Positions 7,657 to 29,990 of a stretch of DNA of 32,000 nt are shown piece after piece. Where the stretch lies: positions 488,843-520,842 of the forward strand of contig NZ_NISU01000002.1 of the NCBI RefSeq assembly GCF_002335805.1, in the 5' to 3' direction. The notes below the pieces were generated by a model. That model was not told the DNA's origin, did not search any database, and saw only the letters and a program-made list of their open reading frames with translations. The position numbers and the translations under genes are program-made. The DNA comes from Bacillus sp. FJAT-45350. Lineage in GTDB: Bacteria > Bacillota > Bacilli > Bacillales > NISU01. Numbering within the stretch: the first letter of the stretch is position 1; the number at the start of each line of letters is the position of its first letter.

Positions 7657-9333
7657 ATGGTGAGAGAGATGAAGGGTTCAATTCAAGCTGTCATGTGGAT
7701 TATGTGGACAGCTGCATTAGCAGCGTATGTGTACTTATTCGTCTCTTTTCCGTTCTCACACGCCGACCCTTACGGCCTTTTTGACTATATAATATTTGGA
7801 TTATTAGCAATATTAGTTTCCTTTTTTCCTATTTTTTACCGGGAGTATTCTATTGTCATATTTCAATGGGTATCATTAGCAAGCTTTTTGCTATTTGGTA
7901 TATTCGTAGAGATTATTATTACCCAAATTGCTGTATTAACAACAGTTATCATTACAGGGATTAATCGCCATAGCTTATATCGGATACCAATGAATTCTAT
8001 TATGTTTCTCTTATCTTCTATTGCATCAGCAGCGGTCTATTATAGCATCCTTACTCTTTTCTCAGTGTTACCTGAAACGATGTTGACGATAATTGGGGCT
8101 TTTGCATACGGTATTACATTTATTATCGTAAATCATCTTGGGATTTTCTTTATAAGGAACGTACTTAGAAAAATTCCTTCAAAGTTCTTTACGAAAGGGT
8201 TTAATACAGAGCTTACTCTCGGATCGCTAGTGTTGCCGATTGGGGTAATAGTCGTGATGCTATATAGTGAAATTGGAAGGATAGCTGCTGTCTACATGGG
8301 GTTTTCTTTTATCGGTATGTCGTTAATCTTTAAGTTATATCATGAGAGCCGACGCTTAAACAAAAAATTAAAAGAAGTTAGTTTATTCGGTTATGAGTTA
8401 GGGGCTTGCTTAAATCGAAAAGAACTAGTGGGACTTTTTCTACAAAAACTAAAACAAATATTTACTCTTGACGCAATCCATATATATCGTATTACTAACG
8501 GAGAAATGAAGCTAGTTGAAGTATATAACCAAGAAGGAACAACTCTAAATGAAGAACTTATTAAGCAAGTTAGTCTTGCTACTTTTGAAGAGAAAAAAGC
8601 GCAAATTCGAAAGAATAAAAAATCAATTCTTTCAGTACCGGTGTATCAGAAAAATGATTTTACAGCGATTGTTACAATCGCGTTAAATGAAGAACGAGCT
8701 TTTCAAAAATGGCATCAGATGATCTTAGAAATAATGACAAACTATTTAGCTGTTGCAATGGATAACGCTACTTATTATGAAAAGAAAAAAGATGAGAGTG
8801 AGCGCTGTCATTTAACAGGACTGTACAACATTCGTTATTTCGAAAGAGCACTTGAGAAGGAAGTTGTGGCTAGTATTAGCAAGAACGAGAAATCGTCTGT
8901 CATTTTACTAGACCTCGACCATTTTAAAAAAGTAAATGACACATATGGCCATCAAGCAGGAAACGATGTTCTATGTAATCTAGCAAACATCTTAATTCAA
9001 GCCACAGATGACAAGGGTATTGTAGCTAGGTACGGTGGGGAAGAATTTGTAGTACTTCTTCCTAATACAGCAGAAATTGAAGCAAACCTAAAGGCTGAAT
9101 CGATAAGACAGACAATAGAAGAACATCCTTTTGTAGTGAAAAATGACTTAGAAAACGGGGAGTCAGTAACGATTCAAATCACTGCCAGTATCGGTGTAGC
9201 GACAAGTATTGCAGATGAATCAAGTCCAATGGCCCTATTGCGGAATGCTGATAGAGCGATGTATACAGGGGCGAAGCAGAAGGGACGGAATAAGGTGGCT
9301 GCTTATGCACCAGTTAGGGCAGAGATAACCTAA
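7657..9333 (+). CDS. multi-pass membrane GAF-GGDEF diguanylate cyclase
   Basis: About 6-7 N-terminal TM helices and a central GAF-like segment (...ILEIMTNYLAVAMDNATYYEK). The C-terminal GGDEF domain has LTGLYNIRYF, DLDHFKKVNDTYGHQAGN, an intact GGEEF and RNADRAMYTGAKQKGRN. There is no RxxD I-site five residues before GGEEF (KGIVARYGGEEF). An alternative start is at 7669. Confidence 0.9.
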   Translation: MVREMKGSIQAVMWIMWTAALAAYVYLFVSFPFSHADPYGLFDYIIFGLLAILVSFFPIFYREYSIVIFQWVSLASFLLFGIFVEIIITQIAVLTTVIITGINRHSLYRIPMNSIMFLLSSIASAAVYYSILTLFSVLPETMLTIIGAFAYGITFIIVNHLGIFFIRNVLRKIPSKFFTKGFNTELTLGSLVLPIGVIVVMLYSEIGRIAAVYMGFSFIGMSLIFKLYHESRRLNKKLKEVSLFGYELGACLNRKELVGLFLQKLKQIFTLDAIHIYRITNGEMKLVEVYNQEGTTLNEELIKQVSLATFEEKKAQIRKNKKSILSVPVYQKNDFTAIVTIALNEERAFQKWHQMILEIMTNYLAVAMDNATYYEKKKDESERCHLTGLYNIRYFERALEKEVVASISKNEKSSVILLDLDHFKKVNDTYGHQAGNDVLCNLANILIQATDDKGIVARYGGEEFVVLLPNTAEIEANLKAESIRQTIEEHPFVVKNDLENGESVTIQITASIGVATSIADESSPMALLRNADRAMYTGAKQKGRNKVAAYAPVRAEIT

Positions 9334-18674: not shown

Positions 18675-20330
18675 ATGGCGCAAAAAAGGAAGCGTTTAGG
18701 TGACTTATTAGTTGATGCAGGGCTTATTACTGATAAACAATTACAAGAAGCACTTAGTACGAAAAAAGATGGTCAAAAGCTAGGGGATGCCCTATTAGAA
18801 CGTGACTATATCACGGAGCAGCAGTTAATTGAAGTATTAGAATTTCAATTGGGTATTCCTCACATTAGCTTACATCGATACCCTATTGATTCAGATGTCT
18901 TAAAAATCGTCTCAAAAGACTTTGCCCGTCGTAATTTATTGATGCCTCTAAAGAAAGAGGGGAATCAATTATTTGTTGCGATGGCTGATCCGATGGATTA
19001 TTTTTCAATTGATGATTTGCGAATGGCTACTGGGTTTCATGTGGAAACTGCGATTGCAGCAAAGGAAGAAATCATAACGGCTATAGAAAAACATTATAAT
19101 TTGGATGAGTCATTAAGTGAATTTGAGATGGATGAGCAAGAGGTAACGGCTGTTGCTGAAGGGGATATGGACGACGCCCCAGTGATCAAGCTTGTGAATC
19201 AAGTGTTAAAAGTAGGCTTAATAAACAAATCCAGTGATATTCACATTGATCCGCAGGAAAAGAAAGTATTAATTCGCTATCGTGTAGATGGTGTGTTAAA
19301 AACAGAACGTGCTCTTCCAAAGAGTGTTCAAAATTCACTTATTGCTCGTGTGAAAATCATGGCAAACCTAAATATTACTGAAAACCGCCTCCCCCAGGAT
19401 GGACGTATTAAAGTAAATATTGACCTACGACCAGTTGATTTACGTATATCCACTTTGCCAACAGTTTATGGTGAAAAGATTGTTATTCGTATTCTGGACT
19501 TAGGTGGGGCATTAAATAGAATCTCACAGCTAGGCTTTAATAAATTAAATCTTGAAAAATTTATGAAAATGATTGAACAGCCATCAGGGTTAATTTTAAT
19601 TACAGGTCCAACAGGTTCCGGTAAATCATCTACCTTGTATGCTGCCCTTAATCATTTAAATACAGAAAGCGTTAATATTATTACAGTTGAAGACCCGGTT
19701 GAATATCAAGTGGAAGGTATTAATCAAGTTCAAGTAAATTCAAGTATTGGGTTAACATTTGCTGCAGGACTTCGATCTATCTTGCGACAAGATCCGAATA
19801 TCGTCATGGTCGGGGAGATTCGTGACTCAGAAACAGCAGAAATCGCTATTCGTGCATCATTAACTGGACATGTTGTTTTAAGTACACTTCATACAAATAG
19901 TGCGATAGCAACGATTCCACGTCTGATTGACATGGATATTGAGCCATATCTTGTTGTGTCTTCATTATCTGGAGTTGTAGCACAACGACTTGTAAGGAGA
20001 ATTTGTACAAGTTGTAAAGAAGAGAATGAACCGACTGAAATGGAAGTCAATTTGTTTAAAAAGCGTGGTATGAAACCTGGTAAAGTATATAAAGGGAAAG
20101 GTTGCCCTTTATGTAATGATACTGGATATAAAGGACGATTAGCGATTCAAGAAATATTAGTCGTTGATGATGAAATTCGTCAAATGATGATGAATAACAA
20201 ATCAATCACTTCAATTAGAGATTACGCACTTAGGAGCGGAATGATATTCTTAGTCGATGACGGCTTATTAAAGGCGAAACAAGGGTTTACGACTATTGAA
20301 GAGGTATTGCGTGTTGCTTTAGATGAGTAA
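18675..20330 (+). CDS. pilB: type IV pilus assembly ATPase PilB (GspE family) with N-terminal MshEN-type domain
   Basis: AGGAGGGG RBS. Walker A GPTGSGKSS, the Asp box, His box and Walker B (VMVGEIRD). Tetracysteine CTSC...CPLC. The N-terminus is RLGDLLVDAGLITDKQLQEALSTK + KLGDALLERDYITEQQLIEVLEFQ. Confidence 0.95.
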   Translation: MAQKRKRLGDLLVDAGLITDKQLQEALSTKKDGQKLGDALLERDYITEQQLIEVLEFQLGIPHISLHRYPIDSDVLKIVSKDFARRNLLMPLKKEGNQLFVAMADPMDYFSIDDLRMATGFHVETAIAAKEEIITAIEKHYNLDESLSEFEMDEQEVTAVAEGDMDDAPVIKLVNQVLKVGLINKSSDIHIDPQEKKVLIRYRVDGVLKTERALPKSVQNSLIARVKIMANLNITENRLPQDGRIKVNIDLRPVDLRISTLPTVYGEKIVIRILDLGGALNRISQLGFNKLNLEKFMKMIEQPSGLILITGPTGSGKSSTLYAALNHLNTESVNIITVEDPVEYQVEGINQVQVNSSIGLTFAAGLRSILRQDPNIVMVGEIRDSETAEIAIRASLTGHVVLSTLHTNSAIATIPRLIDMDIEPYLVVSSLSGVVAQRLVRRICTSCKEENEPTEMEVNLFKKRGMKPGKVYKGKGCPLCNDTGYKGRLAIQEILVVDDEIRQMMMNNKSITSIRDYALRSGMIFLVDDGLLKAKQGFTTIEEVLRVALDE

Positions 20331-20345
20331 GAGGGGGAAATGTTG

Positions 20346-21386
20346 ATGAAAGAGCGTCTAGACAAACTATTAACAGATGCTTTTAAGTTAGGGGCATCAG
20401 ATATTCACTTAACAGTCGGTGTACCTCCAGTTCTTCGGATAAATGGAGAGTTAAAGCAATATGGAAAAGAGATTTTAAAACCTAAAGACACAGAAGCAAT
20501 GGCAAAAGCAATTATCTCAGATGTTCTTTGGAAAGCCTTTCAAAAAAAGGGCGAGCTAGACTTCTCACATGGAATCCCAGGCATATCTCGTTTCCGTGTA
20601 AACTCTTATTTTCAACGTTCATGTGTAAGTTTGGCTATAAGGGTCGTACCAACGACAATCCCGACATTAGAAGATTTAAAGATGCCATCTGTCCTGCAAA
20701 ATATCGCTAAAAAACCACAAGGGCTAGTTTTAGTAACAGGACCAACGGGTAGTGGTAAATCAACGACTCTTGCAGCTATGATTGCCTATATTAACGAGAC
20801 AATGAAGAAGCATATTATTACATTAGAAGATCCAATTGAGTATTTACACAAACACAAAAACTCAATTATTGACCAGCGTGAAATCGGATTTGATACACAA
20901 AACTTTGCAAATGGTCTTCGTGGATGTTTACGTCAGGACCCTGATATTATTCTAGTTGGTGAGATGAGAGACTTAGAAACAATCTCTATCGCGATAACTG
21001 CAGCTGAAACTGGTCATCTAGTATTCGGTACACTTCATACGACAGACGCACCAGCAACAATTGATCGTATTATCGATGTCTTCCCACCAGAACAACAGCC
21101 ACAAGTAAGAATACAACTTGCGAGTGTTTTAGGAGCTGTGATTTCTCAGCGCCTATTTAAAACAGCAGACGGAAAAGGTCGCAGAGCAGCAACCGAAATC
21201 TTAGTAAATAATTCAGCTGTAAAAAATCTAATTAGAAATGAAAAGATTCACCAGATTCATAGTGTCTTACAAACAAGTAAAGCAGCAGGAATGCACACCC
21301 TTGAAATGTCGATAAAAGAGTTATTAGAACAAAATGTAATTACTGATGAAGTTGCTGCACCATTTTTAAGTGAGAAGGGAAGCTAA
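20346..21386 (+). CDS. pilT: type IV pilus retraction (twitching) ATPase PilT
   Basis: Walker A GPTGSGKST, ILVGEMRD, and the PilT signature AVKNLIRNEKIHQI. The track start is 20340, but ATG 20346 is 8 nt after GAGGGGG. Confidence 0.95.
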   Translation: MKERLDKLLTDAFKLGASDIHLTVGVPPVLRINGELKQYGKEILKPKDTEAMAKAIISDVLWKAFQKKGELDFSHGIPGISRFRVNSYFQRSCVSLAIRVVPTTIPTLEDLKMPSVLQNIAKKPQGLVLVTGPTGSGKSTTLAAMIAYINETMKKHIITLEDPIEYLHKHKNSIIDQREIGFDTQNFANGLRGCLRQDPDIILVGEMRDLETISIAITAAETGHLVFGTLHTTDAPATIDRIIDVFPPEQQPQVRIQLASVLGAVISQRLFKTADGKGRRAATEILVNNSAVKNLIRNEKIHQIHSVLQTSKAAGMHTLEMSIKELLEQNVITDEVAAPFLSEKGS

Positions 21387-22591
21387 TGGCACTTTATCAA
21401 TATACAGGAAAACATTTTCAAGGGCGAACAGTCAAAGGTAAGATGAAAGCTGATTCGGAAAAAGATGTCCAAACAACATTGGCTAGCAAAGGGATTAAAA
21501 TCACTGAAGTTGAGGAAGTAAAAAGCCTTCTTCATAAAGAAATTACAATTGGTGAACGAGTAAAATCTCAAGATTTTGTAATTTATTTGAGGCAATTTGC
21601 CACATTGCTACAAGCAGGTATATCTGTTGTCGATACAACGAATATACTAGCAGACCAAACAAATAGTAAGTTGTTAAAAAAGATTTTAAAAGAAATCGAA
21701 GGAGAGCTACAAGCAGGCCGACCATTTTCAGAAGCAGCAGAAAAACACCGTAAAGTGTTTCCATCATTATTTATCAATATGGTAAAGGCAGGGGAAGCAG
21801 GTGGTAATCTAGATGAAATTCTAGACCGAATGGCTATTTACTTTGAAAAGCAACATAAAACAAAGCAAAAGGTCATGTCAGCTATGTCTTATCCACTTGT
21901 CGTAGGTGGGATTGCTGCGGTGATTGTTTTCTTCTTACTTACATTTGTTGTTCCGACGTTTGCTGATATGTTTGCTTCCTTTGGTTCTGAGTTACCGATG
22001 ATTACTCAAATTGTCATGAATGCCGGAGAAATATTTAAATCATTTTGGTGGCTCATTATATTAGCTGTAATCGGTTCGATCTTATTGCTTAAGTTTATTC
22101 GAGATAACAAAGCTACTAAATATTATTTTGATTATGCATTATTACGCATACCTATATTTGGGAAGCTATTGCAAAAGGCAGCACTTGCACGTATGACTAG
22201 AACATTAAGTTCACTCTTTTCTAGTTCTGTACCAATCTTGCAAGCTGTATCAATTGTGGAAAAAATTGTTGGGAACGAAGTACTAGCTAAGGTTATCCGT
22301 CAATCACGCGTCTCATTAGAAAAAGGGGAATCGATTGCAGGACCAATGCAAAAACATTGGGCGTTTCCACCACTAGTCACTCAGATGATATCAGTCGGAG
22401 AAAAAACGGGGGCACTTGATACGATGCTTGAGAAAGTAGCTGATTTCTATGAAGACGAGGTTGACGCAGCAACAGACCAAGTCAAATCGTTAATTGAGCC
22501 ATTAATGATTGTCGTTCTGGCTGGAGTTGTTGGAACGATCGTTGCTTCCATTGCCATTCCGATGTTCCAAATTTTTGATAGTGTTGGGTAA
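21386..22591 (+). CDS. pilC: type IV pilus platform protein PilC (GspF family, two T2SSF repeats)
   Basis: Duplicated T2SSF-type segments (FIRQFATLLQAGISV... / MTRTLSSLFSSSVPIL...) and 3 TM regions. TAATG overlap with pilT. Confidence 0.9.
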   Translation: MALYQYTGKHFQGRTVKGKMKADSEKDVQTTLASKGIKITEVEEVKSLLHKEITIGERVKSQDFVIYLRQFATLLQAGISVVDTTNILADQTNSKLLKKILKEIEGELQAGRPFSEAAEKHRKVFPSLFINMVKAGEAGGNLDEILDRMAIYFEKQHKTKQKVMSAMSYPLVVGGIAAVIVFFLLTFVVPTFADMFASFGSELPMITQIVMNAGEIFKSFWWLIILAVIGSILLLKFIRDNKATKYYFDYALLRIPIFGKLLQKAALARMTRTLSSLFSSSVPILQAVSIVEKIVGNEVLAKVIRQSRVSLEKGESIAGPMQKHWAFPPLVTQMISVGEKTGALDTMLEKVADFYEDEVDAATDQVKSLIEPLMIVVLAGVVGTIVASIAIPMFQIFDSVG

Positions 22592-22727
22592 GGAAATGAA
22601 ATAGGTAAATTGATTCAAGGATAGTTGATTATTTGTTGATTAATTACAATTAATTGCGATAATCAGTTAAAATTGTGACTAATTTCCCATGCTTGAGTAA
22701 TGTAGGTATGGTACTATTAGGTTGTAA

Positions 22728-22800
22728 ATAAATAGGATGCGATGAAGGGGAATCTGTATGTGGGCACTTGGATTACCTAGAGCAAGTAGTGCAACCGGCC
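22728..22800 (+). promoter_or_regulatory. c-di-GMP-II-type riboswitch aptamer, copy 1 (upstream of pilA)
   Basis: ...gatgaagggg...tgtGGGCACTTGGattacctagagCAAGTAGTGCAACCGGCC carries the blocks I recall as the c-di-GMP-II core (UGGGCACUUG-hairpin-AGUAGUGCAACCGACC). It is about 70 percent identical to a second copy at 24568-24640, and the internal hairpin is preserved (cttg/caag versus cttg/cgag). Confidence 0.7.
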
Positions 22801-22836
22801 AATTTTGTATACTGATACGAAGTTGGTTATTTTTTG
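22799..22836 (+). terminator. expression-platform terminator of riboswitch copy 1
   Basis: ccaattttgtat / atacgaagttgg forms a 12-bp stem (2 G-U pairs) with a 4-nt loop, then ttatttttt. The 5' arm starts inside the last aptamer nucleotides. Confidence 0.7.
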
Positions 22837-22914: not shown

Positions 22915-23454
22915 TTGTTAAAGAAAATGAAAGTTTTAAAGAATGAGAGAGGTTTGACACTTGTTGAGCTTTTGGCAGTAGTTGTTATTTTGGGGATTAT
23001 TGCCGCGATAGCGGTGCCGGCAGTAGGAAGTATTATTGATAATAGTAAGAAGGATGCACATGTGGCTAATGGTTTGCAGGCTATTAATTCTGCGAGGTTA
23101 GCAATTGCTACGGAGTCTACATTACAACCTACAGGAACGAATGTTACTATTATTCCATTAGGTTATTTATTAAAAGAGGGCTTGATTGAATCTATCACTA
23201 GTCCTGATAACAGTAAACAGTACGCTACAACAGAAACTGATGTTACAGCTAAAAATGTTGCTACTGCTACACTACCTGCTGAATCGTATGTACGTATAAC
23301 TAGTACTTCTGGTGGTTTTAATTATGAAGTATATTTACTTGGAGATAATAGTGGCACTGCTAAGTCAAGACATCTGGGTGAACAAAATACTCCAGCCACT
23401 GAAACTACTTTAAAAGGAGATAATTCAACAAAAAGAGCCACAGTAAAAAATTAA
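22915..23454 (+). CDS. pilA: major type IV pilin (179 aa precursor)
   Basis: TTG start about 8 nt after GAGGAGGAAGGG. Class III signal MLKKMKVLKNERG/LTLVELLAVVVILGIIAAIAVP. It is the only pilin gene on the plus strand and follows pilBTC and a riboswitch. Confidence 0.85.
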   Translation: MLKKMKVLKNERGLTLVELLAVVVILGIIAAIAVPAVGSIIDNSKKDAHVANGLQAINSARLAIATESTLQPTGTNVTIIPLGYLLKEGLIESITSPDNSKQYATTETDVTAKNVATATLPAESYVRITSTSGGFNYEVYLLGDNSGTAKSRHLGEQNTPATETTLKGDNSTKRATVKN

Positions 23455-23598
23455 AGAATAAAAGAATAGGTCCATAAAACAAAGGTACCAGTTACCTCAA
23501 AAAGACAAAAGTCATGGTTATTCCACATGAGGTGGACATAGCAAAGTACTAAAAATTATAGATTGAGATAAAGACTTAGTAGTAAGTAGGTCTTTATC

Positions 23599-23770
23599 TG
23601 GTGTCAGACACTAAATATAGACAAAACGGCTGATTTTTTCCATGTAGTATGGACAGTTATATAAATAGAGTGAACGAAATAGATATATGGTGTCAGACAC
23701 CAGATATAGACAAAATAGCTGATTTTTCCATGTAGTAGGGACAGTTATAAATAGAGTGAACGAAAGACCA
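23599..23770 (+). repeat. 89-bp tandem direct duplication (2 copies)
   Basis: Copy 1 starts at 23599 and copy 2 at 23688 (tggtgtcagacac[t/c]a[a/g]atatagacaaaa[cg/ta]gctgattttt(t)ccatgtagta[t/g]ggacagtta(ta)taaatagagtgaacgaaa). Each begins with the palindrome GGTGTCAGACAC(C). Confidence 0.85.
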
Positions 23771-23796
23771 ACTAGAATTCTAGTTGGTCTTTCGTT
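23759..23796. terminator. perfect 34-38-nt palindrome, probable terminator of the pilA transcript
   Basis: aacgaaagaccaactagaattctagttggtctttcgtt forms a stem of about 17 bp, followed by tag. It is symmetric, so it could act on either strand. Confidence 0.6.
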
Positions 23797-24000
23797 TAGA
23801 AGTAAAATAGGTACTAGGTACCAAGATAAGAAAAAAACTTGAGATTTTCCACATGAGTTGGACAGATTTGAATCTACTAGTTCTTTGTCTATTTTATATT
23901 TTAATTATTTGTCTACGAACTATAGATTGTACAATAAAATTGGCAACTCCATATTAATAAATGTATATTAAGATTTTGATATATCATTCATAAGCCCCCA

Positions 24001-24029
24001 TCGACAACTTACATATCCTGTAATATAAT
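24001..24029 (+). promoter_or_regulatory. candidate sigmaA promoter upstream of the 24045 ORF
   Basis: TCGACA (24001-24006), a 17-nt spacer, then TATAAT (24024-24029). Confidence 0.4.
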
Positions 24030-24044
24030 CAAGTTATCGAGCAC

Positions 24045-24500
24045 ATGAGAGAAGTGAGTAGGATGCCTTTTATAAGCAAAGATTCGAAATTTTATTCTTT
24101 TGTTGAGCCGTTGGTGTATTTCTTCCTGTTACTTTTCTTTTATATTGGTGGTTATTTTTTAGTGACTCATGCGACTTCTTCTATACAGGAGAGGGTTCAT
24201 GAGTACAATGCTTCTCAATTTAGTAAAATAGTGAAGTTACATTTAGCAACTGGTGAATTGGAGCCAGTGGATGGGACTATTTATTTCTCTGAGTTGATTG
24301 AGTTAGGATTATTAGGGGATGATGAGGCCTTTGTATCAGATATTCCTATGCTTTCTACTATCAAATCATCTTACTCTCCTGCGTCCTTTGTCCGAGTAGT
24401 GAGAGCTGATAATCAACCGGAGCTGCAAGTTCGGTTATGTATGTCATCCATCGAGGATTGTGTACCAGAAAAGGCAGTGTACGACACGATAGAAGAATAA
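24045..24500 (+). CDS. small membrane-anchored hypothetical protein, possibly a degenerate pilin-like protein (151 aa; alternative start 24063)
   Basis: N-terminus ...KFYSFVEPLVYFFLLLFFYIGGYFLV has a hydrophobic helix with an early Glu but no Gly-1. The later segment GTIYFSELIELGLLGDD resembles pilA VTIIPLGYLLKEGLIES. If the 24001-24029 promoter is real, ATG 24063 is the more plausible start. Confidence 0.5.
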   Translation: MREVSRMPFISKDSKFYSFVEPLVYFFLLLFFYIGGYFLVTHATSSIQERVHEYNASQFSKIVKLHLATGELEPVDGTIYFSELIELGLLGDDEAFVSDIPMLSTIKSSYSPASFVRVVRADNQPELQVRLCMSSIEDCVPEKAVYDTIEE

Positions 24501-24567
24501 AACTTTAATTTACTATATGTAAATAACTGTTTCATAAATTATGCACGTCATGTACAATAATAGTTAA

Positions 24568-24640
24568 TATAATAGGATGCTATGAACGGCTATCTCTAAT
24601 TGGGCACTTGGATAGCTTGGAGCGAGTAGTGCAACCGACC
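24568..24640 (+). promoter_or_regulatory. c-di-GMP-II-type riboswitch aptamer, copy 2 (upstream of pilD-pilMNO)
   Basis: aataggatgctatgaacggctatctctaatTGGGCACTTGGatagcttggagCGAGTAGTGCAACCGACC matches the remembered c-di-GMP-II core exactly over GGGCACUUG and AGUAGUGCAACCGACC. Confidence 0.75.
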
Positions 24641-24676
24641 AATTTTGCTTGAGGATAGCAAAGTTGGTTTTTTTTT
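24639..24676 (+). terminator. expression-platform terminator of riboswitch copy 2
   Basis: ccaattttgct / agcaaagttgg forms an 11-bp stem with a 7-nt loop, followed by nine T residues. Confidence 0.8.
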
Positions 24677-24783
24677 ACTATAAAGGTAGTCAATTTATAG
24701 CTTTTTTTCTAATTTAGGTAAAGATTTTTGTAAGTACATAGTATAATGGTCTTATAAGTTAATGGTAAAGGACGATAATTTGA

Positions 24784-25542
24784 ATGGATGTATTTATCTA
24801 TATTTATCTGTTTATATTTGGTTTGGTTTTAGGCTCATTTTATAATGTTGTTGGTTTGCGAGTACCGGTGGAAGAATCTATTGTAAAGCCACGGTCTCAT
24901 TGTCCGAATTGCAAACGTACATTAACAGCTTTGGATTTAGTACCTGTTTTTTCTTATTTATTAATTAGAGGGAAATGTCGTGGTTGTGGGTTAAAAATAT
25001 CTCCGTTGTATCCGTTAATGGAGTTATCGACAGGTCTTTTATTTGTCCTAGCTTATTATTTTATTGGATTGCAGTGGGAGCTTCTTGTTGCTTTATTGTT
25101 TATTTCTATGCTTGTGATTATTTTCGTTAGTGATGTTCGATATATGTTAATTCCAGATAAAATATTACTAGTATTTGCACCTATGTTTCTAGTTTTACGG
25201 GTATTCGTAGCCCCTTTATCTCCTTGGTGGGATATGTTATTGGGTGCTGTTGTCGGTTTTACACTTTTGTTTATAATTGCTGTTGTTAGCCGTGGTGGTA
25301 TGGGCGGTGGCGACATTAAATTGTTTGCAGTGCTTGGACTTGTGTTAGGGCTACAAGATGTCCTTTTAGCTTTCTTCTTATCAACATTGTTTGGTACCAT
25401 ATTTGGAATCGCTGGGTTACTGACTGGGAAAGTCAAACGAGGAAAACCAATGCCTTTTGGACCATATATCGTTCTTGGGACGATTCTAACTTACTTCTTT
25501 GGTCAAGACATTATACAATGGTATTTTGATTTGTTATGGTAG
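24784..25542 (+). CDS. pilD: prepilin peptidase / N-methyltransferase (A24 family; positional equivalent of B. subtilis comC)
   Basis: N-terminal CPNC...CRGC zinc-ribbon segment, 6-8 TM helices, and the catalytic-Asp contexts VSDVRYMLIPD and GGMGGGDIKLF. Confidence 0.95.
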   Translation: MDVFIYIYLFIFGLVLGSFYNVVGLRVPVEESIVKPRSHCPNCKRTLTALDLVPVFSYLLIRGKCRGCGLKISPLYPLMELSTGLLFVLAYYFIGLQWELLVALLFISMLVIIFVSDVRYMLIPDKILLVFAPMFLVLRVFVAPLSPWWDMLLGAVVGFTLLFIIAVVSRGGMGGGDIKLFAVLGLVLGLQDVLLAFFLSTLFGTIFGIAGLLTGKVKRGKPMPFGPYIVLGTILTYFFGQDIIQWYFDLLW

Positions 25543-25564: not shown

Positions 25565-26554
25565 ATGAATCTTTTTCAGTCAAAAAAAGACATGCGTACA
25601 AGTATCATTATTAAAGACCATGTTATTCGCTATGTTCATGCAAAGAAACCGAGCCTTGATTCGATTCGTTCATTTGGGGAGCGTTTCTTACCTGAAGGGG
25701 TCATTAGAGAGGGTCAAATTATTGACCGAGAAACGTTAGAGATTATTTTCGAGGAATGTATTGAGCATTGGAAGATTAAACGACATGCCATTCAATTCTG
25801 TGTACCAGATTCTTTTGTAGTCGTAAGGAATATATTGATACCAAAAGAAGTGGCAGAAGATGATATTCGAATGCATCTTCATATGGAAATGGGAGAGTCG
25901 ATTCACCTCCCTTTTGAAAACCCATCTTTTGATTTTAAGCTGTTAGGTGAAAAAGATGGACAGAAAGAGATATTATTAATTGCTTCTCCAGAAAAAGTCG
26001 TTATGGAGTTGTATGAATTTTTATCTGAATTAAAGCTTCAACCGAATGTAGCAGATGTTTCGTCACTTTCGTTGTATCGTTTATTTACGAAAGTCGATAA
26101 GGCACTTTCGGACGAGCATTTACTTCTTGTGCAGCTTGACCGTTCATCTATTAATCTAACAGTTTTCTATTCACATAAGCCAATGTTTACACGTCATTTT
26201 CGTTTAAATAGTGATGATGAGAAATGGGCAATTAAAGGTGATGTGGAGATGGAAAGCTTAGTTTGGGAAGGTGAAATTGAGGAGATTGATGGACAAGCAG
26301 AGGAGTTAATTACTGAGGTGGAACGAGTGATGAATTTTTATCGTTTCTCTGTTCATAAAGGAAAAGAAGGAGTCAACCGGATTGCGATTACAGGTGACCA
26401 TCCTTACTTAGAGCGAATGATAGACATTTGCAAAGAAAGCTTTGATTTGCCAGTAGAAACATTATTAGATGTAGAGATTATTTCAGCTACAGGAGCTATC
26501 CCTTATCAATTTCATGATACTGTCGGACTGATGCTGAAAAAAGAGGTGCGCTAA
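25565..26554 (+). CDS. pilM: PilM-like (actin/FtsA-fold) pilus assembly protein
   Basis: Size and position immediately before pilN with a TAATG overlap. Contains LLLVQLDRSSINLTVF-type phosphate-loop-like strands. The sequence evidence is weaker than the synteny evidence. Confidence 0.7.
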   Translation: MNLFQSKKDMRTSIIIKDHVIRYVHAKKPSLDSIRSFGERFLPEGVIREGQIIDRETLEIIFEECIEHWKIKRHAIQFCVPDSFVVVRNILIPKEVAEDDIRMHLHMEMGESIHLPFENPSFDFKLLGEKDGQKEILLIASPEKVVMELYEFLSELKLQPNVADVSSLSLYRLFTKVDKALSDEHLLLVQLDRSSINLTVFYSHKPMFTRHFRLNSDDEKWAIKGDVEMESLVWEGEIEEIDGQAEELITEVERVMNFYRFSVHKGKEGVNRIAITGDHPYLERMIDICKESFDLPVETLLDVEIISATGAIPYQFHDTVGLMLKKEVR

Positions 26555-27138
26555 TGTTAGTAGAAGTGAACCTGTTACCAGAAAAAGAGAAACGTGATTT
26601 AACACCAGTTATTATAATCCTTATTATTGGAATTTTATTGGTAACTGCTACTATTGTCCTATCCTCCCTACATAGCTCAGTATCTACAGAGGTTACTGAG
26701 CTAGAAAATGAGGTGCAAGAGTTGATGATATTATCAGAGACGACTAGACAAGAACTAACAGAGCAACAGACAAATAACATTGGACAGTTAGAAGAGGTTA
26801 TCTCTGCGTTAGATAAGCAGTTGTTTCCAGCTTCTTTGTTACTTGACCATATAGTTAGTCTTTTACCAGAAAGAGGATTTTTCCTTAATTTTAATTATTC
26901 TCTACCAAATGAAGTATATTTTGATGCTAGTTTTGATAGGATAGAGGAAATTGCTCAATTTAGTAATGCTCTCTACTCGTCTGATGCAATAGGAGAAGTG
27001 CTTCTGTCCGATATTAGCACGAACCAGATACTTGATGATGAAGACTTAAACCGTGATGAATATTTACCACGCTATGTGGCTAGCTATTCTATTAAAATAG
27101 TTCCAGTTAGCCTACGAGAAATGAGGGATGAAAATTGA
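26554..27138 (+). CDS. pilN: PilN-family pilus assembly protein
   Basis: N-terminal VNLLPEKEKR (the INLLP motif), then a single TM helix and a coiled coil. Confidence 0.8.
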   Translation: MLVEVNLLPEKEKRDLTPVIIILIIGILLVTATIVLSSLHSSVSTEVTELENEVQELMILSETTRQELTEQQTNNIGQLEEVISALDKQLFPASLLLDHIVSLLPERGFFLNFNYSLPNEVYFDASFDRIEEIAQFSNALYSSDAIGEVLLSDISTNQILDDEDLNRDEYLPRYVASYSIKIVPVSLREMRDEN

Positions 27139-27878
27139 ACCTATCATTTTCAAAAAAACATATCATTATTCTCGGAGTAGCGATATTCCTTCTGATTGCT
27201 AGTGCATTTTTCTTTTTTTCTCAATATATATCGCCAGCGATGAAAGAGAAAGAAGTTTTGGCAGCAGAAGTAGAATTTGAGAAAAGCCAGCTTGCTATAT
27301 TACGGGACCAACAGAGAGACACGACTACAGAAGCCATTGAGACTAGTATTGAATTACAACGTAAATTACCTGTAAAGCCATTAGTCGATCAATTTTTATT
27401 AGATATTTCTCGAGCAGAAGGACTGTCAAACAGTTATATTCTTTATATAGATATAAGTGAGGGCGGAGAGTTATCTTTACGTGCTACTGAGGATGGTGTT
27501 GAAGGTGAAACTTCAACTCCTGTAGAACAGAGCGAGGGTGAAGGAGGTCAAGAAACGACTCAAGAACAACAGGTAAATGTAGATATAGAGGGCCTAAAAC
27601 AAATTACCCTCAATCTATCTGTACGGGCAAATCGTTATCAAGATTTAGCTCAGTTTCTTCGAGAGCTTGATAGATTGCCGAGGATTTCTAGTATTGATTC
27701 AGTCTCTTTTATAGGTCATGATGAACAGATAATGGTAGATGATGTCCATGATAGCTTAGAGTTTAATGTGACAGTCTCTACTTATTTTTATCCAGAATTA
27801 CTAGAACTAGGGGAAGAAGGACCGAAAGTCGATTACCCTCGACCAAGTAATAAAGATAACCCGCTATATTCTAATTAA
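27135..27878 (+). CDS. pilO: PilO-like pilus assembly protein
   Basis: TTG start overlapping the pilN stop (TTGA), 6 nt after GAGGGA. It has a TM helix, a coiled coil and a C-terminal alpha/beta segment, with an acidic insert. Assigned mainly by position. Confidence 0.6.
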   Translation: MNLSFSKKHIIILGVAIFLLIASAFFFFSQYISPAMKEKEVLAAEVEFEKSQLAILRDQQRDTTTEAIETSIELQRKLPVKPLVDQFLLDISRAEGLSNSYILYIDISEGGELSLRATEDGVEGETSTPVEQSEGEGGQETTQEQQVNVDIEGLKQITLNLSVRANRYQDLAQFLRELDRLPRISSIDSVSFIGHDEQIMVDDVHDSLEFNVTVSTYFYPELLELGEEGPKVDYPRPSNKDNPLYSN

Positions 27879-29246: not shown

Positions 29247-29990
29247 GTGAGTAAAGTTGAAAAATATGGATTAAGCAAAGAAGTTTTTTACGTTCTTATT
29301 AATATTTTTAAAGACTATTCAGATATAATCGAGAAAGTTATATTGTTTGGTTCAAGGGCAAGAGGAGATTATAAAGAAACGTCTGACATTGATTTAGCAA
29401 TAAAGTTTAGAGAGAAAAATGACCAGATAACTAAAATAATAGATACTCTTTCCAATGAAAAAATTATCTATACGATTGATTTAATAGATGTCGATACAAT
29501 AAGTAATGAAAAGTTAAAGAATTATATAAATACTGAGGGAAAAGTGATATTTTTAACCAATTCTAAAGGTGAGGTTATCGACAATATGAATAAAATAATG
29601 GACAAGTTAACTGATTTAGAAAAAGCAACAAGAAAACTACATGAAAGTTTAAGTAGAGATCCTAGTCAAGATGATATTGTCATTGATGCAACAATACAAC
29701 GGTTTGAGTTTACATATGAATTATCATGGAAGTTAATGAAAGCCTTTTTAGAATATAATGGACATTTGGAAGTAACTAGTCCAAGAAGGACAATTCGGGT
29801 AGCTTTTAAAGAAGGTCTTATAACAAAAGGGGATGCATGGTTAGCAATGCTTGAAGACCGGAATAAGACTTCGCATACTTATGATGAAGAGACTGCAAAT
29901 AAAATATATAACAGTATTAAATTACATTTTATTCAGCTTTTTGATGAACTACTAATTGAGATGAAAAAGAGAATAAATCTTGAGTTATAA
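29247..29990 (+). CDS. single-chain fusion of a minimal nucleotidyltransferase (MNT, HI0073-like) and an HI0074-type HEPN/NTase-substrate-binding domain
   Basis: GTG start. N-terminal LFGSRARGDYKETSDIDLAI is the G-S-x(n)-D-x-D pol-beta NTase motif. C-terminal QRFEFTYELSWKLMKAFLEYNG ... LEDRNKTSHTYDE is the HI0074-family signature with an R-x4-H HEPN motif. Confidence 0.85.
   Translation: MSKVEKYGLSKEVFYVLINIFKDYSDIIEKVILFGSRARGDYKETSDIDLAIKFREKNDQITKIIDTLSNEKIIYTIDLIDVDTISNEKLKNYINTEGKVIFLTNSKGEVIDNMNKIMDKLTDLEKATRKLHESLSRDPSQDDIVIDATIQRFEFTYELSWKLMKAFLEYNGHLEVTSPRRTIRVAFKEGLITKGDAWLAMLEDRNKTSHTYDEETANKIYNSIKLHFIQLFDELLIEMKKRINLEL

Follow-up and report, generated by a model that had tools for sequence, protein, structure and literature searches.

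Bacillus sp. FJAT-45350 has a second class II c-di-GMP (c-di-GMP-II) riboswitch in its type IV pilus locus, directly ahead of the gene for the prepilin peptidase. The window, by which we mean the whole 32,000-nt stretch of DNA analysed, contains one member of this class before the pilin gene (copy 1) and another before pilD (copy 2). We consider it likely that the segment 24566-24676 functions as a class II c-di-GMP riboswitch with a terminator platform; it lies in the leader of pilD-pilM-pilN-pilO and is predicted to be an ON switch. The pilus genes and the two riboswitches are arranged as follows.

18675-20330: pilB (T2SSE and MshEN; Pfam)
20340-21386: pilT (Pfam)
21386-22591: pilC (Pfam)
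22726-22836, + strand: riboswitch copy 1 (aptamer 22726-22809, 75.4 bits to RF01786; hairpin 22797-22828, then a T-run)
22915-23454: pilin gene (Pfam N_methyl)
24063-24500, + strand: gene for a 145-aa membrane-anchored protein (ORF 24045-24500, annotated start 24063), upstream of copy 2
24566-24676, + strand: riboswitch copy 2
24784-25542, + strand: pilD, prepilin peptidase (Pfam A24_N_bact and Peptidase_A24; the product matches the FJAT-45350 prepilin peptidase at 100% identity), the first gene 3' of copy 2
25565-26554, + strand: pilM (Pfam PilM_2, E 2e-17)
26554-27138, + strand: pilN-like gene, assigned by position only, its start overlapping the pilM stop
27135-27878, + strand: pilO-like gene, assigned by position only, overlapping the pilN-like stop

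The first-pass annotation had placed copy 2 after the ORF 24045-24500 and 107 nt before pilD, and had named pilD-pilM-pilN-pilO as the downstream genes. The placement is correct, with the end of copy 2 at 24676 and the pilD ATG at 24784, and the gene names stand, pilD and pilM by Pfam and pilN and pilO by position. The pilN-like gene has no significant family match in Pfam or NCBIfam; a gene of the same size occupies the same position in the related loci L081, L082, L084, L085 and L087. For the pilO-like gene no match was obtained in NCBIfam, and its positional equivalents in L082, L084 and L087 have a faint match to PF04350 (PilO).

An Rfam scan of the whole window returned only two matches above the gathering score, both to RF01786, both on the + strand and both full length. 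The copy 2 match scores 71.5 bits (E 2e-14), relative to a gathering score of 53.5, and spans positions 1-84 of the 84-position model. Within clan CL00127, RF01786 is the top scorer at copy 2, and the variant motifs of the clan score lower. This covariance-model match, whose absence had been named as a refutation, bears out the proposal of a second c-di-GMP-II riboswitch. The extent first given for it, 24568-24676, covers the aptamer plus the terminator, except that it begins 2 nt inside the aptamer, which starts at 24566. The parts of copy 2 are the following.

24566-24649, + strand: aptamer, with helices (model numbering) P1 1-11/74-84, P2 13-15/57-59 and P3 22-29/46-53
Model positions 39-42 and 64-67: pseudoknot complement, GCAC with GUGC, present and intact
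24637-24676, + strand: expression platform, consisting of a terminator hairpin (24637-24669) followed by T9 (24668-24676)

In the solved c-di-GMP-II structure the pseudoknot is formed by GCAC in the P3 loop and GUGC in the 3' joining region. Copy 2 keeps 33 of the 34 highly conserved positions (upper case in the Rfam consensus). The sole exception is a change of U34 to A, and an A at this position is also found in the pilA riboswitches of L003 and L008. The core stretches TGGGCACTTGGAT and AGTAGTGCAACCG are identical in copies 1 and 2, as had been noted. Measured against the consensus structure, P2 is fully paired in copy 2 (3/3), as are 7 of 8 pairs in P3; P1 has standard pairs at 8 of 11 positions, and its outer half is weak and A/U-rich. 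Across 12 pilus-locus aptamers P1, P2 and P3 all covary, with 82.5% of cells paired and two-sided changes in 17 of 22 pairs, a level reached by 0 of 500 shuffles; slid controls were 31-43% paired. By these measures copy 2 is a canonical member of the c-di-GMP-II class, and it is predicted to bind the ligand.

The expression platform overlaps the aptamer. A terminator scan identified a hairpin of 13 pairs with a 7-nt loop, and the 3' strand of P1 (24639-24649) lies wholly inside its 5' arm (24637-24649), so that P1 and the terminator are mutually exclusive. The terminator arms CCAATTTTG...AAGTTGG and the T-run are common to both copies, in agreement with the first reading, and the T9 of copy 2 ends at 24676. 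In both copies the terminator is compact, the 3' strand of P1 reads CCAAUUUUG, and a -10-like box lies a short way 5' of the aptamer. The minimum-free-energy fold of ligand-free copy 2 contains the terminator hairpin, for which the nearest-neighbour energy is -15.7 kcal/mol versus -0.8 kcal/mol for the aptamer helices alone. Termination is thus expected as the default, and readthrough would need a ligand-stabilised aptamer. Because the outer part of P1 is weak and A/U-rich, the nearest-neighbour energy strongly favours the terminator; switching would depend on tertiary and ligand energy, which fall outside that calculation.

This anatomy suggests a simple mechanism. RNA polymerase would reach copy 2 from a promoter of its own (-10 at 24553-24558) or from a site at 24001-24029 after passing through the 145-aa ORF. 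Without ligand, the P1 3' strand (24639-24649) would pair with 24657-24669 to form the 13-bp hairpin followed by U9, and transcription would stop at ~24676. With c-di-GMP bound, the pseudoknotted aptamer would keep 24639-24649 in P1, the terminator could not form, and polymerase would read through into pilD and the alignment-complex genes. The earlier description of these genes as attenuated by c-di-GMP is sound as regards an intrinsic terminator that overlaps P1 ahead of pilD. Its direction does not fit, since the anatomy predicts that c-di-GMP relieves termination, and the phrase is better read as predicting termination unless c-di-GMP is present. The same logic is known from Cdi-2-4, the class II riboswitch before pilA1 (CD3513) of C. 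difficile, at which transcription stops in the absence of c-di-GMP and continues in its presence; each of the four class II switches of C. difficile is an ON switch (PMC6366702, PMC11477304). Copy 2 likewise has an intrinsic terminator that excludes a ligand-stabilised P1, as expected of an ON switch of the Cdi-2-4 type.

Three promoter-like sites bear on how transcripts would enter or bypass this platform.

24001-24029, + strand: strong promoter-like site before the 145-aa ORF (TCGACA, 17-nt spacer, TATAAT; 11/12 consensus matches)
24531-24558, + strand: promoter-like site before copy 2 (-35 TTCATA, 16-nt spacer, -10 TACAAT at 24553-24558; 9/12 consensus matches)
24742-24747, + strand: perfect TATAAT 3' of the terminator and 5' of pilD; its -35 is poor, and it is a possible riboswitch-independent promoter

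The TACAAT before copy 2 ends 7 nt ahead of the aptamer, which would put the transcript start at ~24565, at the 5' end of P1. A -10-like hexamer occurs 5-14 nt before the aptamer in 7 of the 12 pilus-locus aptamers, compared with 2.6 expected from shuffles (P about 0.007). Having such a box, as these do, copy 2 probably heads its own transcript, besides acting on polymerases that come from 24001-24029, whose transcripts would run into it.

Comparison of the two copies indicates that both have been under selection. Over the aptamer 66 of 84 positions are identical (79%), and of the 18 differences a single one affects the 34 conserved positions (hypergeometric P 3.7e-4). Differences therefore shun the conserved core, which argues that both copies have been under selection since they diverged. 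In P3 the copies differ by compensated, two-sided changes at pair 25/50 (G.A to C-G) and pair 26/49 (A-U to U-A), and the inner stem of the terminator is also compensated, TAT/ATA becoming CT/AG. The first-pass annotation had argued for selection on structure rather than recent duplication from a compensated hairpin, cttg/caag versus cttg/cgag. That hairpin corresponds to no helix of the family consensus, and the change in it is one-sided, an A to G opposite an unchanged T (U-A to U-G). The conclusion survives on other grounds, namely the avoidance of the core, the compensation in P3 and the terminator, and the 79% identity.

The same comparison bears on the origin of copy 2. Copy 1 is 80% identical to its orthologue in L078, which comes from a different genus, and 79% identical to copy 2; being as close to the one as to the other, it implies that copy 2 is no recent duplicate. 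Copy 2 may stem from an old duplication whose product was lost elsewhere, from a duplicate that diverged fast, or from the copying of a different c-di-GMP-II riboswitch of the same genome; a tree of the 84-nt aptamer is too short to resolve the order of duplication events. In a local comparison of the two intergenic regions, similarity is confined to the aptamer and terminator (88/111 nt, E 3e-25), and no significant similarity was detected between the leaders outside this part. The common compact terminator and the extent of the similarity fit a duplication of an aptamer-terminator cassette, and on sequence grounds the copy 2 cassette is a diverged paralogue of the cassette before the pilin gene. 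The copies lie 1,840 nt apart, with the pilin gene, a 590-nt spacer and the 145-aa ORF between them, and each has its own terminator. We considered a tandem riboswitch arrangement and rejected it, as the two have separate terminators, are 1.8 kb apart and precede different gene sets.

To place this arrangement among relatives, 87 related PilD loci (80 from one-genome-per-species contigs and L081-L087 from exact-protein look-ups) were searched with a pair of covariance models, the first derived from the two copies in the window and the second from the 12 aptamers. A single c-di-GMP-II aptamer was found in 13 of the 87 loci, always between pilC and pilA. Two aptamers in one locus were found in 0/87, as was an aptamer directly before pilD (0/87), so that the arrangement, which had been called unusual, is indeed without parallel in this set. 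The pilD gene closely follows pilA in the aptamer-bearing relatives, with a homologue of the 145-aa ORF between them in L008. No aptamer was detected in L081 (PilD 72% identical). L082, the closest relative compared (PilD 74% identical), has none before pilD, and its pilA leader lies off the contig. A pattern for metagenomes, in which the aptamer core is followed after 141-201 or 81-141 nt by the PilD residues GSFYNVVG, gave 0 matches in two scans; as it demands the exact core and limited spacing, this is a weak negative. An Rfam scan (137 kb) of the pilus loci of seven riboswitch-less relatives found no other riboswitch class, such as c-di-GMP-I.

The pre-pilD position of copy 2 thus appears to be lineage-specific. 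Since it is found in one genome only, conservation across species, the usual argument for function, is missing. Most of the pilA riboswitch orthologues in relatives have a terminator that overlaps P1, and in every orthologue with a recognisable expression platform the layout predicts ON logic. Two of them (L060:9405-9530 and L040:9391-9525) are without a T-run terminator; there the P1 3' strand can pair with the Shine-Dalgarno region (AAAGGUGGG), which suggests a translational version of the ON switch. Two low-scoring candidates were set aside. The segment 30025-30100 (- strand) of the window scores 19.3 bits (E 0.034) to the 12-sequence aptamer model, has no Rfam match and is most likely a chance hit, and L084 5352-5435 (11.3 bits, below any Rfam threshold) was likewise taken as chance.

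Three other accounts of copy 2 were weighed. A leaky or partial gate is possible, if somewhat doubtful: a promoter 3' of the terminator, at the TATAAT of 24742-24747, could bypass the gate and give basal, riboswitch-independent transcription of pilD-pilMNO, to which copy 2 would add a c-di-GMP-dependent part. This perfect -10 hexamer stands 37 nt before the pilD ATG, and the 9-mer TAGTATAAT recurs unchanged in L008, in the corresponding spacer between the 145-aa ORF homologue and pilD, which has no riboswitch. However, the -35 is poor (TAAAGA, 17-nt spacing), a TG extension is absent, and the promoter consensus scan did not report the site; chance occurrences of TATAAT are common where spacers are AT-rich, and the match to L008 (E 0.3) is alone not significant. 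Such a promoter is moreover compatible with the riboswitch mechanism, as it would alter the size of the effect and leave the mechanism unchanged. It is improbable, by contrast, that copy 2 is a relic, copied with its cassette and retained for a terminator that marks the 3' end of the 145-aa ORF transcript, with an aptamer that has lost either its ligand binding or its control of the hairpin. The arrangement is indeed found in one genome only, among the loci and metagenome patterns searched, one highly conserved position has changed (U34 to A) and the outer part of P1 is weak. Yet at 21% divergence from copy 1 the substitutions avoid the conserved core (P as above) and are compensated in P3 and the terminator, neither of which is expected of a decaying aptamer; the score is far above the gathering threshold, and L003 and L008 also have an A at position 34 in their orthologous pilA riboswitches.

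We regard as least probable, and very much so, an OFF switch in which c-di-GMP would promote termination, so that high c-di-GMP would shut off pilD-pilMNO. One riboswitch class can act both ways: class I switches of C. difficile are OFF and Bc2 of B. thuringiensis is ON (PMC6366702). At copy 2, however, the P1 3' strand lies entirely in the terminator 5' arm, so that a ligand-stabilised P1 and the terminator exclude each other, and no separate anti-terminator for the aptamer to sequester was seen in folds of copy 2. The pilin copy and most orthologues share this layout, and the studied pilus example is ON.

Compared with Cdi-2-4, copy 2 shares membership of RF01786, the type IV pilus pathway and an intrinsic-terminator platform, with the ON logic here predicted from the overlap of P1 and terminator. 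The two differ in position, as Cdi-2-4 precedes the major pilin gene whereas copy 2 precedes the prepilin peptidase gene and pilMNO. They also differ in number, Cdi-2-4 being the sole riboswitch of its pilus cluster and copy 2 the second in its locus, and in host, which is Clostridioides difficile for the former and a Bacillaceae for the latter. Copy 2 also differs from copy 1 and its orthologues between pilC and pilA (13 Bacillaceae loci) in its downstream genes. A triple-tandem arrangement of class I c-di-GMP riboswitches has been reported from Bacillus thuringiensis, where, as here, several aptamers of one class serve one function. Unlike those, the two copies described here are 1.8 kb apart, have their own terminators and probably their own promoters, and precede different gene sets.

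In the literature searched, we found no report of a c-di-GMP-II riboswitch directly before the prepilin peptidase and PilMNO genes, nor of two in one pilus locus. What is new is that copy 2 stands before pilD/pilMNO and that a single pilus locus holds two copies with separate terminators; the riboswitch class, the type of platform and c-di-GMP-II control of pilin genes and of the type IV pilus pathway were already known, and copy 2 leaves knowledge of the class itself unchanged. If functional, the two would be a naturally occurring pair of ON switches that belong to one class and one pathway, and their thresholds, once compared, could reveal how the assembly of a machine is staged by a second messenger. 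Copy 2 would then also clearly exemplify the copying of a riboswitch cassette to put a new gene set under an existing signal.

Other genes in the window have links to c-di-GMP. The product of the gene at 7657-9333 (+ strand) is a membrane protein with multiple passes and, at its C-terminus, a GGDEF domain whose GGEEF motif is intact; it is likely a diguanylate cyclase. The gene lies between a folC-like Mur ligase gene and a PGA_cap gene, and no gene occupies this place in the syntenic region of L081. The N-terminus of PilB (18675-18850, + strand) begins with RLGDLLVDAGLITDKQLQEALSTK and KLGDALLERDYITEQQLIEVLEFQ, a near-complete tandem of the MshEN motif, a 24-residue c-di-GMP-binding motif (PMC5013675). 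The PilB tandem deviates from it by a G to D change in the second repeat and by a spacer of 4 rather than 5 residues. On the strength of these motifs, c-di-GMP may also act on the PilB assembly ATPase. Together, the GGDEF protein with its intact GGEEF and the MshEN-type motifs of PilB indicate that FJAT-45350 probably makes and uses c-di-GMP.

Taken jointly, the comparisons permit a tentative reading, which we hold to be on the unlikely side, of the locus as the record of a rewiring event. The ancestral Bacillaceae layout would have been one promoter-riboswitch unit before a compact block of pilA, in some cases the 145-aa ORF, pilD and pilMNO. In the lineage of FJAT-45350 the 590-nt repeat-rich spacer and a new promoter would have split pilA from the rest, and an aptamer-terminator copy would then have been recruited before pilD, bringing the peptidase and assembly module back under c-di-GMP control. 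Counting the MshEN-type N-terminus of PilB, c-di-GMP would have its input at three separate nodes of the pilus machine: the supply of pilin, processing together with the alignment complex, and the motor ATPase. The thresholds of the two riboswitches may differ and so order the assembly.

The spacer after the pilin gene (23454-24045, 590 nt) is non-coding and rich in repeats, and it occupies a place where relatives have a compact pilA-pilD junction. It contains two direct repeats, each some 85 nt long (23595-23679 and 23684-23765), a 61-nt repeat pair (23478-23538 and 23804-23864) that shares TTCCACATGAG-TGGACA, and a perfect 38-nt palindrome (23759-23796) that is not followed by a T-run. The spacer may represent a mobile repeat, a small RNA or a set of binding sites. 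Nothing in Rfam matches it; matches of miRNA models to the palindrome were far below threshold and were dismissed as meaningless.

The 145-aa protein encoded before copy 2 belongs to no Pfam or NCBIfam family, and a search of a large protein database with the 151-aa ORF (24045-24500) returned the self match only. Pairwise comparison showed its homology to two ORFs that both sit between pilA and pilD, one at L082:1709-2176 (32% identity, E 3e-27) and the other at L008:9457-9894 (26% identity, E 1e-12). Proteins of ~145-155 aa at this place in some Bacillaceae have one N-terminal hydrophobic segment and diverge fast (26-32% identity), and may represent an undescribed pilus accessory protein.

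Just past the pilus cluster, a single ORF at 29247-29990 (+ strand) combines an MntA-like nucleotidyltransferase with an HI0074 family substrate-binding subunit (type VII toxin-antitoxin); L081 and L082 have no counterpart at that position. The window in turn has no equivalent of the Wzy_C (O-antigen ligase-like) gene that is found in L082 (406-1692) between the pilin gene and the homologue of the 145-aa ORF, and that may serve in pilin glycosylation.
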